Virus record (IMG/VR): IMGVR_UViG_2529292904_000023 | DNA: 27,930 bases | Reading direction: 5' to 3' (one strand) | DNA from: a virus | Taxonomy: Duplodnaviria; Heunggongvirae; Uroviricota; Caudoviricetes | In this document: positions 1,567 through 2,519 of the stretch, in pieces | How the letters are laid out: each line of letters starts with the position of its first letter | How positions within the stretch are numbered: position 1 is the stretch's first letter | Notes under the pieces: model-generated | What the model saw: the letters and a program-made list of their open reading frames with translations, nothing else | What the model was told of the DNA's origin: nothing | Databases searched by the model: none | Translations under genes and position numbers: made by a program

Positions 1567-2103
1567 ATGATGCTTACCCTGGACGAGATAGGTCAATCAG
1601 TACGTAACAATATTCAGTTGATTATTGATCATGTCGGCTTACCTCTTGCTGTTGGTCCGCTCAGTGATGATGATTACAAGATTCTGTGTGGTGGCTATGG
1701 TGAGCTTGAATGGGACTATGCGTTAAGTACCTATGGCAACTCCAGAGAAAAGTATGAGTTCTGCATAAAACTTGTTCAGCAAGGTCGGGTTCAGGGAATA
1801 CCATCAGGAGCAGCAATTTGTGTTTATGGGGTTGAAGAAAACATCTTTCGTATCCATATGATCGAAAGGTTTTCTAGAGAAGATGAATCTCACCCATTGA
1901 AAGGGCGCATGGTTTTACTCACTCTTATGAGTGCTTTTATATTTTGTAAAGCTGTTGAATGTAAAGTTGTCCACATTGTAGAGCCAGTACCAGAACTGGT
2001 GCAGTATTACGAGTCTTTTGGTTTCCGCATGGAACAGTGCGGTTATGTGATGTCGGCAGTCATTGATGAGCTGCAGGATATCTTTCTTAAATTTGCTCAG
2101 TAG
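1567..2103 (+). CDS. Hypothetical protein, 178 aa; C-terminal half weakly resembles an acetyltransferase-like (GNAT) fold
   Basis: ORF with GAGAGG Shine-Dalgarno upstream of ATGATG; C-terminal pattern KGRMVLLTLMSAF...VHIVEPVPELVQYYESFGF; fold assignment is tentative. Confidence 0.45.
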   Translation: MMLTLDEIGQSVRNNIQLIIDHVGLPLAVGPLSDDDYKILCGGYGELEWDYALSTYGNSREKYEFCIKLVQQGRVQGIPSGAAICVYGVEENIFRIHMIERFSREDESHPLKGRMVLLTLMSAFIFCKAVECKVVHIVEPVPELVQYYESFGFRMEQCGYVMSAVIDELQDIFLKFAQ

Positions 2104-2299
2104 GTATAGACGAGAAGGGGCTACAAATTGTAGGATACCCGTCCAGATTACCTTAAAGGTACATCTATGGCAGTCGTTTTGTGCTTAAACTACTAAGAAA
2201 CGATGTCACCAATCGACATGATCGATTGGCATAAGTTAGCGAAACAAGCTAGCTTTAAAGAAAGGGTTAGAGACGCCTTTACTGTCTCGGGAGTTTTCT

Positions 2300-2472
2300 A
2301 TGAAAGATCAAAAAGCAACCAAGCCACAGGTTAAGTTCGACACAATGAAAGCATTCGCAGGTATGGGTGCTGCTGTTGAAGTTCTGATGAAGGCTGCTCC
2401 TAATGCGTTCACTCACGCTACTGTCTCTGGTAAAGAGCAGCAGGGTAAGCTTCGTCGTCGCAAAGCAGCATG
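2300..2472 (+). CDS. Small hypothetical protein, 57 aa, basic C-terminus
   Basis: Not in the ORF track (under 60 aa); ATG at 2300 with GGGAG Shine-Dalgarno 8 nt upstream; followed immediately by a strong terminator. Confidence 0.4.
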
Positions 2473-2492
2473 ATCATAGCTGGTGCTTTTTG

Positions 2493-2519
2493 AAAACCCG
2501 CCTTCAGGCGGGTTTTTTC
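2493..2519. terminator. Bidirectional rho-independent terminator between convergent genes
   Basis: AAAA-CCCGCC-ttca-GGCGGG-TTTTTT; A-run on the left and T-run on the right serve both strands. Confidence 0.75.

Follow-up and report, generated by a model that had tools for sequence, protein, structure and literature searches.

A mobile two-gene cassette encoding a predicted divergent GNAT-fold protein and a small basic protein at the attachment-site end of a dusA-integrated prophage

The tailed-phage record IMGVR_UViG_2529292904_000023 (27,930 nt, hereafter the window, numbered from its first nucleotide) spans the left end of a lambdoid E. coli prophage in which two plus-strand open reading frames (ORFs), here orf178 and orf57, lie between the attachment site (att) and the early genes. 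We found that a homologue of orf57 follows homologues of orf178 wherever we could follow the latter closely, that the two genes travel together between unrelated phages, and that the orf178 product, according to structure prediction, belongs to an unrecognised GNAT family visible only by this approach. Because the slot in which the pair resides holds toxin-antitoxin modules in sister phages, the pair is probably a new accessory unit, and possibly a toxin-like or defence unit. The cassette is widespread and yet annotated everywhere as two hypothetical proteins; it points to a GNAT family whose members all come with a tiny companion protein, and to an att-proximal slot of dusA-type prophages that appears to gather toxin-antitoxin and defence-like modules.

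Linkage, mobility and genomic setting of the two genes

The initial annotation had described two plus-strand genes of 178 and 57 codons as one module. Both ORFs are present as described (Table 1), and comparison with homologous sequences confirmed both as real genes; the initial annotation had overlooked the attL setting, the hotspot character of the slot and the structured RNA that separates the genes. In 104 of 104 fetched loci, the orf178 homologue is followed after 93-200 nt, and in the same orientation, by an orf57 homologue. Similarly, among 5426 complete E. coli genomes, 359 records contained orf178 and 359/359 contained the whole module. Thus, the proposed pairing, for which co-occurrence in other genomes had been suggested as a check, was not refuted. 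The cassette was found in 356 of the 5426 complete E. coli genomes (~6.6%), many of them O157:H7 and O111, and prophages of Salmonella and Enterobacter commonly carry it as well. In the loci compared, the linkage of orf178 and orf57 is strict from the enzyme side and one-way.

The pair lies next to att in E. coli, Salmonella and Shewanella-type prophages, just upstream of the lysis genes in Enterobacter and Edwardsiella, and inside a myovirus tail gene cluster in Photorhabdus. These placements show a unit that is mobile between phages and occupies at least three accessory-gene positions in unrelated phages. The idea that orf57 is mere phage backbone was revised, as the pair is found together at unrelated positions in other phages. 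Among more distant relatives, P0110 (32% identity to orf178; integrase gene adjoining) is followed after 23 nt by a 60-aa orf57 homologue (hidden Markov model (HMM) E 1.6e-6). P0122 (25% identity; integrase adjoining) has a 52-aa ORF downstream (...FDVTE...PKAA), P0132 (21% identity; flanked by lysis genes and terminase) a 92-aa acidic ORF, and P0145 (20% identity; a CBASS system alongside) a 54-aa basic ORF. At L125 (128-4913), the distant orf178 relative with a 54-aa basic ORF downstream is 261 aa long with a net charge of -29, and the CBASS system beside it comprises patatin, a DncV-like cyclase and E1/E2 proteins.

The two genes differ in their divergence. Within Enterobacteriaceae, orf57 is 89-98% identical and the enzyme 65-85%. 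In the same locus pairs (the window versus L075, L079 and others), the number of synonymous substitutions per synonymous site (dS) is ~1.6 for orf178 and 0.08-0.11 for orf57. This contrast implies either a recombination breakpoint between orf178 and orf57 or a constraint on synonymous sites in orf57.

The cassette was claimed to be bracketed by two terminators, the right one bidirectional. Hairpins exist on both sides; however, the left one belongs to the host DUF2713 gene and is separated from the cassette by dusA and the left attachment site (attL), while the bidirectionality of the right one was borne out in part: it scores as a terminator on the plus strand only, and on the minus strand its stem is followed by TTTTC. 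The related claim that the pair forms a plus-strand transcription unit of its own, apart from the early-left operon, was supported. A G+C-rich hairpin with a T-run follows orf57 in ~20 of 23 diverse loci, with stem and loop changes that preserve pairing; the Photorhabdus tail-cluster copies lack a clear terminator at this place. At the other end of the cassette, a TAnAAT-like element precedes the GNAT gene by 30-35 nt in 18 of the 18 listed contexts, whichever genes flank it. The copy of this element in the window (TATAAT) has no convincing -35 element, and a consensus scan made no promoter call there. The G+C content of the cassette (0.41-0.43) is below that of the neighbouring early region (0.47-0.52). 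Since it has a terminator of its own and is polymorphic in both presence and position, the cassette is, by its sequence features, a phage moron. It resembles lambda bor and lom, and P22 gtrABC next to att, in being an independent unit with its own terminator and lower G+C content, in varying in presence among similar phages and in using several accessory-gene sites. The term moron denotes genetic architecture only and is silent on function, and the cargo is here an uncharacterised protein family.

Judged from the alignment, the window spans the attL junction of a lambdoid prophage of the mEp460 type that has integrated into dusA. From 1316 on, it is 98% identical to the temperate phage mEp460, in which the gene order is int (minus strand), attP, gp23 (corresponding to orf178), gp24 (corresponding to orf57), the excisionase gene (xis; minus strand, PrtN-like) and exonuclease. 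The ORF at 1313-1441, translated as MKMHGNSEMQKINQ...APMLD, is the 5' end of dusA, and its equivalent carries the RefSeq name 'tRNA-dihydrouridine synthase, incomplete'. Since dusA is cut short here and continues as phage DNA, the junction is the attL of a dusA-integrating prophage. The crossover lies at ~1415-1427 (ATGCTCGATAGGA); the window and mEp460 attP are identical from 1415 on and different upstream. The module is the first phage DNA past att and is convergent with xis; the int gene must sit at the opposite prophage end, the cassette and att being located between int and xis.

We aligned four att regions, namely attP of mEp460 and the attL of the window, of a Panacea-type E. coli locus and of Salmonella. 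A variable cargo slot begins at ~1490, directly past the block GGGAGCCTATTGGGAACC. The Panacea-type E. coli loci resemble the window up to ~1490 and again from 2287, which is 13 nt ahead of the orf57 start. In the 561-564 complete E. coli genomes with orf57, it lies behind orf178 in 356 and behind a Panacea pair in 205, with practically nothing else. This pair consists of a 190-aa Panacea-domain antitoxin (PF13274, E 2e-19) and a 128-139-aa protein without family assignment, which is presumably the toxin of the Panacea antitoxin. It was located in the slot between the dusA att and orf57 in 5/5 inspected loci, also in phage SKA5 (L003 2986-4187; L002 3362-4563; L127-L129), and at megablast identity it was never found without orf57. 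Thus, the Panacea (PanA/SocA, DUF4065) pairs occupy the same slot and are allelic with orf178; they differ in fold and genes, and form a two-gene module of their own upstream of orf57, with no Panacea domain in the window. In Shewanella baltica (L133 610-3174), a canonical TacA1-GNAT toxin pair is followed by a 269-aa protein and a HEPN protein (27.2 bits), and then by orf57; a related metagenomic prophage (L131 1222-3180) has orf178-orf57 behind the same TacA1-GNAT pair. The Shewanella-type prophage ends suggest a defence/toxin-antitoxin hotspot kept across distant phage lineages. In total, these loci support that the att-proximal slot is a cargo hotspot with toxin-antitoxin-type modules, in which orf178 is exchangeable cargo and orf57 the constant last gene. 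In E. coli 13E0725 (L128 2820-3854), an additional CoiA-like gene lies between orf57 and xis; thus, the far side of orf57 can accept cargo too.

Predicted properties of the two proteins

The true start of orf178 is likely the second ATG at 1570 (177 aa) because homologues begin with 'ML', RefSeq (WP_000956557) agrees, and the Shine-Dalgarno sequence is better spaced from it. The family is small: at E ≤ 1e-3, a set of 5.8 billion proteins yielded 51 homologue clusters, nearly all from Enterobacterales and Shewanella, and a set of 1.84 billion proteins only 96 representatives. The ratio of nonsynonymous to synonymous substitution rates (dN/dS) is 0.04-0.05 where dS is unsaturated. The protein has zero Pfam or NCBIfam matches at E ≤ 1, the GNAT models Acetyltransf_1/3/7/10 included, zero PADLOC matches, and is placed in PHROG family 4350, labelled 'unknown function'. 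A profile built from 31 homologues found no GNAT among PDB sequences at E ≤ 10; its best match there, HIV gp41-5 (E 0.003), was rejected as a spurious low-complexity match. Only 1 of 55 family members matched Acetyltransf_1 (E 0.006). Membership in a well-characterised housekeeping family, which the initial annotation had named as a possible counter-finding, received no support, as the protein matches no such family.

The AlphaFold model of orf178 has a predicted local distance difference test (pLDDT) score of 93.6 and a predicted template modelling (pTM) score of 0.90. The initial annotation had noted a pattern loosely like an acetyltransferase in the C-terminal part; the likeness was borne out, and in the predicted structure the GNAT alpha/beta fold spans the whole length of the protein. 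Foldseek matched the model to Gcn5, NatD, SpeG, AtaT and KacT at template modelling (TM) scores of 0.5-0.58 without singling out a subfamily, and a BFVD search returned generic viral GNATs only (TM 0.4-0.6). H97 and E100 in beta4, H109-P-L-x-G113 in the beta4-alpha3 loop and Y148-x-x-x-G-F in alpha4 are invariant; E139, where beta5 ends, is almost so. Beta4, the beta4-alpha3 loop, the end of beta5 and alpha4 are the usual sites of GNAT catalytic and coenzyme A (CoA)-binding residues. Because the invariant residues fall at these sites, orf178 is predicted to be an active acyl-CoA-dependent N-acetyltransferase. The loop (H109-P-L-K-G113-R-M115; H109, P110, L111, G113 and M115 invariant) is unusually long with 13 residues, and compared with the motif A consensus Q/R-x-x-G-x-G/A it deviates at the first and last positions. 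The protein is acidic, with an isoelectric point (pI) of 4.8 and a net charge of -10; core-family enzymes range from pI 4.3 to 4.9 and from -8 to -18 in net charge.

By contrast with this acidic enzyme, the orf57 protein is small and basic, as had been noted (pI ~10.5, net charge +7.6; +5.5 to +8.7 in the core family), so that the two charges are complementary across the core family. Homologues of orf57 form 48 to 74 clusters and are recognisable down to 34% identity (Shewanella). The protein is under purifying selection (dN/dS 0.05-0.3) and keeps to 54-58 aa in loci with 44 distinct spacer variants. It falls into PHROG 2741 ('unknown') and has no other family match in Pfam, NCBIfam, PADLOC or PHROGs. 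The AlphaFold2 model (pLDDT 61.5) contains a sole helix at ~15-37 with disordered ends; a fold search with this model was set aside since the pLDDT is too low for the result to be meaningful. From E. coli to Shewanella, G23, L29, A32, A33, P34, E46, G49, R52 and A57 are invariant. The C-terminal motif E-x-Q-G-K-x-R-R-R-K-A-A is conserved, and its form common to E. coli and Shewanella is E46-x-x-G49-(K/R)-x-R52. The C-terminus ...RRRKAA resembles the C-terminal recognition signals of ClpX, i.e. RRKKAI of MuA and ...LAA of ssrA (PMC8138137), and orf57 may be short-lived through this putative ClpX-degron-like end. We found no paper on either protein, their accessions or their PHROG families.

In known GNAT toxins, the catalytic Tyr lies in the helix alpha4 region, and Y148 of orf178 is a conserved Tyr on this helix. 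Moreover, orf178-orf57 resembles TacAT, AtaRT, KacAT and ItaRT in combining a ~175-aa GNAT-fold enzyme with a small partner on mobile DNA. However, orf178 has no Pfam GNAT match, whereas the genuine TacA1-GNAT pair next door (L131, L133) matches Pfam. Judged by the family features compiled for canonical GNAT toxins (PMC9177977), the pair is not a member of the canonical GNAT toxin-antitoxin families; none of the features that define them was found in it.

The prophage-like KpLE2 element of E. coli K-12 likewise has a two-gene unit for a small basic protein and a ~180-aa GNAT, in which the toxin TopAI (YjhX, 85 aa) and the antitoxin YjhQ (181-aa GNAT) bind each other in a complex (PMC4666372). 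There, the small toxin gene is the upstream one, with 11 nt between the genes, an order opposite to that of orf178-orf57. YjhQ matches Pfam Acetyltransf_1 and TopAI matches YjhX_toxin (PF09857, 127 bits), whereas orf178 and orf57 match neither. Homology was ruled out, with hhalign probabilities of 0.1% (orf57-TopAI) and 0.4% (orf178-YjhQ). To the protein N-terminal acetyltransferases NatD/Naa40, RimI and Ard1, orf178 is only 9-13% identical, with scores that do not separate GNAT subfamilies; it ends in a helix after beta6, whereas these enzymes have a beta6-beta7 hairpin.

Possible roles of the pair

Tentatively, we favour the reading that the cassette is an autonomous accessory unit, a moron, lodged in a hotspot for toxin-antitoxin cargo, and that its acidic GNAT would be restrained by, or act on, a putatively labile basic partner. 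In this scheme, orf178, with an acidic substrate surface, would act as an acyl-CoA-dependent N-acetyltransferase, and orf57 would dock on it through the central helix and the conserved basic tail (E-x-Q-G-K...RRKAA) as a substrate or pseudosubstrate. The small protein would be made in excess, aided by a structured leader and perhaps an internal promoter, and would be turned over rapidly through its ClpX-degron-like C-terminus, so that a steady supply would keep the enzyme in check. Once this supply stopped, e.g. upon host shut-off by an infecting phage, the freed enzyme could acetylate a basic host or phage protein, resulting in arrest of growth or infection. The module would then be a toxin-antitoxin-like or abortive-infection switch built on a GNAT family unrelated to the known ones. 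This reading draws on the mEp460-like context, the predicted fold with its invariant residues at candidate active-site positions, the one-way linkage, in which orf57 persists without the GNAT and behind a frameshifted GNAT gene (L025), the toxin-antitoxin modules that take the same slot, the complementary charges, the largely disordered partner with its degron-like tail, and the moron features. The more specific proposal of a new phage-borne toxin-antitoxin-like or abortive-infection family, in which an acidic sequence-orphan GNAT with a basic-protein target rather than aminoacyl-tRNA is combined with a ClpX-labile pseudosubstrate and a ratio-setting RNA spacer, and which is unrelated to TacAT/AtaRT and TopAI-YjhQ, we consider doubtful. 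If the toxin-like or defence reading is true, the cassette would represent a new enzyme-plus-small-protein logic in phage-host conflict systems and a handle on the contribution of prophages to pathogenic E. coli.

Several observations weigh against the switch. In TacAT-type modules, a DUF1778/TacA ribbon-helix-helix (RHH) antitoxin is encoded by an adjacent, usually upstream and overlapping gene. By contrast, orf57 has no DUF1778/TacA1 RHH or other DNA-binding domain and starts 196 nt downstream, past a long structured spacer, unlike in canonical GNAT type II modules. The acidity of orf178 makes aminoacyl-tRNA, the target of such toxins, unlikely, although the charge of the whole protein is only a proxy for its surface; moreover, the atypical pyrophosphate loop of motif A (P-L-K-G-R-M) makes its catalytic competence uncertain. 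Toxins usually evolve more slowly than the antitoxins that go with them. In Enterobacteriaceae, however, the enzyme is less conserved than orf57, which is atypical for an antitoxin; recombination may explain this. Only 4 of 72,556 plasmid records carry the cassette. In addition, the co-transfer of the two genes could follow simply from their being held in one promoter-to-terminator unit, and a role of orf57 as a specific antidote is weakened by its position behind the HEPN pair in Shewanella. The toxin-antitoxin relation on which the initial annotation had speculated was thus not established, the linkage being one-way and orf57 occurring also without the GNAT.

The same one-way dependence, in which the enzyme is never found without orf57 while orf57 occurs without the enzyme, would suit a non-toxic modification pair. 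Here, orf57 would be an effector on a conserved host or phage target, and orf178 its dedicated acetyltransferase, which would modify the N-terminus or the lysine of Q-G-K and thereby tune charge, activity or ClpXP-dependent stability. The conservation of orf57 above that of the enzyme in Enterobacteriaceae fits this idea, as does the invariant E-x-x-G-K/R motif in the disordered tail, G-K being a typical context of lysine acetylation by GNATs, and a basic protein is a fitting substrate for an acidic enzyme. If so, the phage would possess an acetyltransferase devoted to a small effector of its own. However, the slot holds toxin-antitoxin-type modules and not modifiers as alleles of orf178, and we regard a modification pair as possible, if rather improbable. 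Alternatively, the two proteins might not be coupled at all, with orf57 being the constant last gene of an att-proximal unit that is transferred from promoter to terminator and orf178 its exchangeable cargo. This would account for the segment exchanged in E. coli (~1490-2286), which ends immediately upstream of the orf57 start, for the three unrelated modules that precede orf57, and for the far lower dS of orf57 in the same locus pairs, which implies different histories of the two genes. Nevertheless, we consider this alternative unlikely because there is not a single exception to the linkage among hundreds of loci in at least three unrelated genomic positions, because the linkage to an orf57 homologue persists at 32% enzyme identity and that to a small downstream ORF at 20-25%, and because the charges are complementary throughout the core family.

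Finally, the polarity could be the reverse, with orf57 as the toxin and the GNAT or the Panacea protein as the antitoxin acting by binding or acetylation, in a TopAI-YjhQ- or type VII-like manner. As an antitoxin domain, Panacea is described as promiscuous, and in complete E. coli genomes orf57 practically never occurs without one of the two upstream modules; the TopAI toxin/YjhQ antitoxin complex of E. coli K-12 provides a precedent (PMC4666372). By contrast, the pair is not homologous to TopAI/YjhQ and has the opposite gene order, and the modules with Panacea or HEPN proteins appear to be full two-gene systems by themselves. Moreover, at a Photorhabdus temperata locus (L025 4001-4790), the orf178 homologue is frameshifted, with three HMM pieces in different frames, while the orf57 homologue is intact. 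We therefore hold a reversed polarity to be very unlikely.

Cassette features and the structured spacer RNA

The features at this prophage end are listed in Table 1. The block GGGAGCCTATTGGGAACC is probably an att arm or a site for a recombination protein (arm-type recombinase or accessory protein). Because there is no terminator between the dusA promoter and orf178, the host dusA promoter may read into orf178 in the lysogen.

Table 1. Positions of the cassette, its putative signals and neighbouring features in the window
Feature	Position	Strand	Description
Host DUF2713 gene	1-957		ORF
Terminator-like hairpin	995-1024		13-bp stem and T-run; belongs to host DUF2713 gene
Host dusA 5' fragment	1313-1441	+	42 codons, the last ones phage-derived, and stop; outside the cassette
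Block GGGAGCCTATTGGGAACC	1466-1483	no strand	Invariant in all four aligned att regions; putative att arm or protein site
-10-like element TATAAT	1532-1537	+	30-35 nt upstream of orf178 start; candidate cassette promoter
orf178 Shine-Dalgarno GAGAGG	1559-1564		
orf178	1567-2103	+	178-aa ORF; divergent GNAT-fold (acyl-CoA N-acyltransferase-like) protein
Intercistronic spacer	2104-2299	+	196 nt; hairpins H1-H5
H1	2121-2125/2129-2133		
H2	2149-2152/2158-2161		
H3	2209-2216/2222-2229		
H4	2233-2240/2248-2255		
H5	2270-2274/2284-2288		Adjoins orf57 Shine-Dalgarno
orf57 Shine-Dalgarno GGGAG	2289-2293		
orf57	2300-2473	+	57 aa; one central helix, disordered tails
Cassette intrinsic terminator	2492-2517	+	11-bp stem, 6 G-C pairs, T-run; faces xis end
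xis	2521-2829	-	Convergent with the module

The spacer between the two genes, 196 nt here and 93-197 nt elsewhere, is predicted by RNAfold to form a structure of -56.7 kcal/mol (z = -2.87), and 0/200 shuffled sequences fold as well. Covariation was examined for hairpins H2-H5 in 21 distinct Enterobacteriaceae spacers. Of the cells in these hairpins, 88.3% were paired versus 23-43% with slid partners, and both sides had changed in 30 cells versus 0-11 with slid partners. The observed covariation score was reached by 0/500 shuffles, and most of the compensatory changes were in H4. U-G and G-U pairs are frequent; thus, a plus-strand RNA is favoured. There was no Rfam 15 match within 2104-2299 at E ≤ 1, and the structure is not recognisably conserved in the Photorhabdus or Shewanella spacers. 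H3 and H4 contain the invariant columns TTGG.A, 17-18 nt, TA...T, and TTGGCA (2226-2231) and TAGCTT (2250-2255), which are 18 nt apart, constitute a possible candidate for a weak internal orf57 promoter; a consensus promoter scan made no call at this site. We infer that the spacer may be a regulatory leader or a processing element that uncouples the expression of orf57 from that of orf178.

A 43-aa ORF within the spacer that overlaps the orf57 start (2203-2334) is probably no gene, as neither its ATG nor its frame is conserved across spacer alignments. In the L100, L101 and L103 spacers, a TTACC/GGTAA hairpin competes with a mutually exclusive CCGCAT...ATGCGG hairpin; moreover, the GTCTC arm beside the orf57 ribosome-binding site has a possible pairing partner in GACGAGA or ACGGGA at the 5' end of the spacer. 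Together, these alternative pairings hint at a possible conformational switch.

We considered whether the spacer corresponds to sRNA-17, a 193-nt ArcA-regulated prophage small RNA of E. coli K1 RS218 whose discoverers dropped 'hypothetical protein' annotations before defining intergenic regions (PMC7719688). An identity of the two was ruled out: the 5' end of sRNA-17, taken from the primer table of that study, maps with one mismatch to 8781-8801 on the plus strand, inside or beside the minus-strand ORF at 8274-8822.

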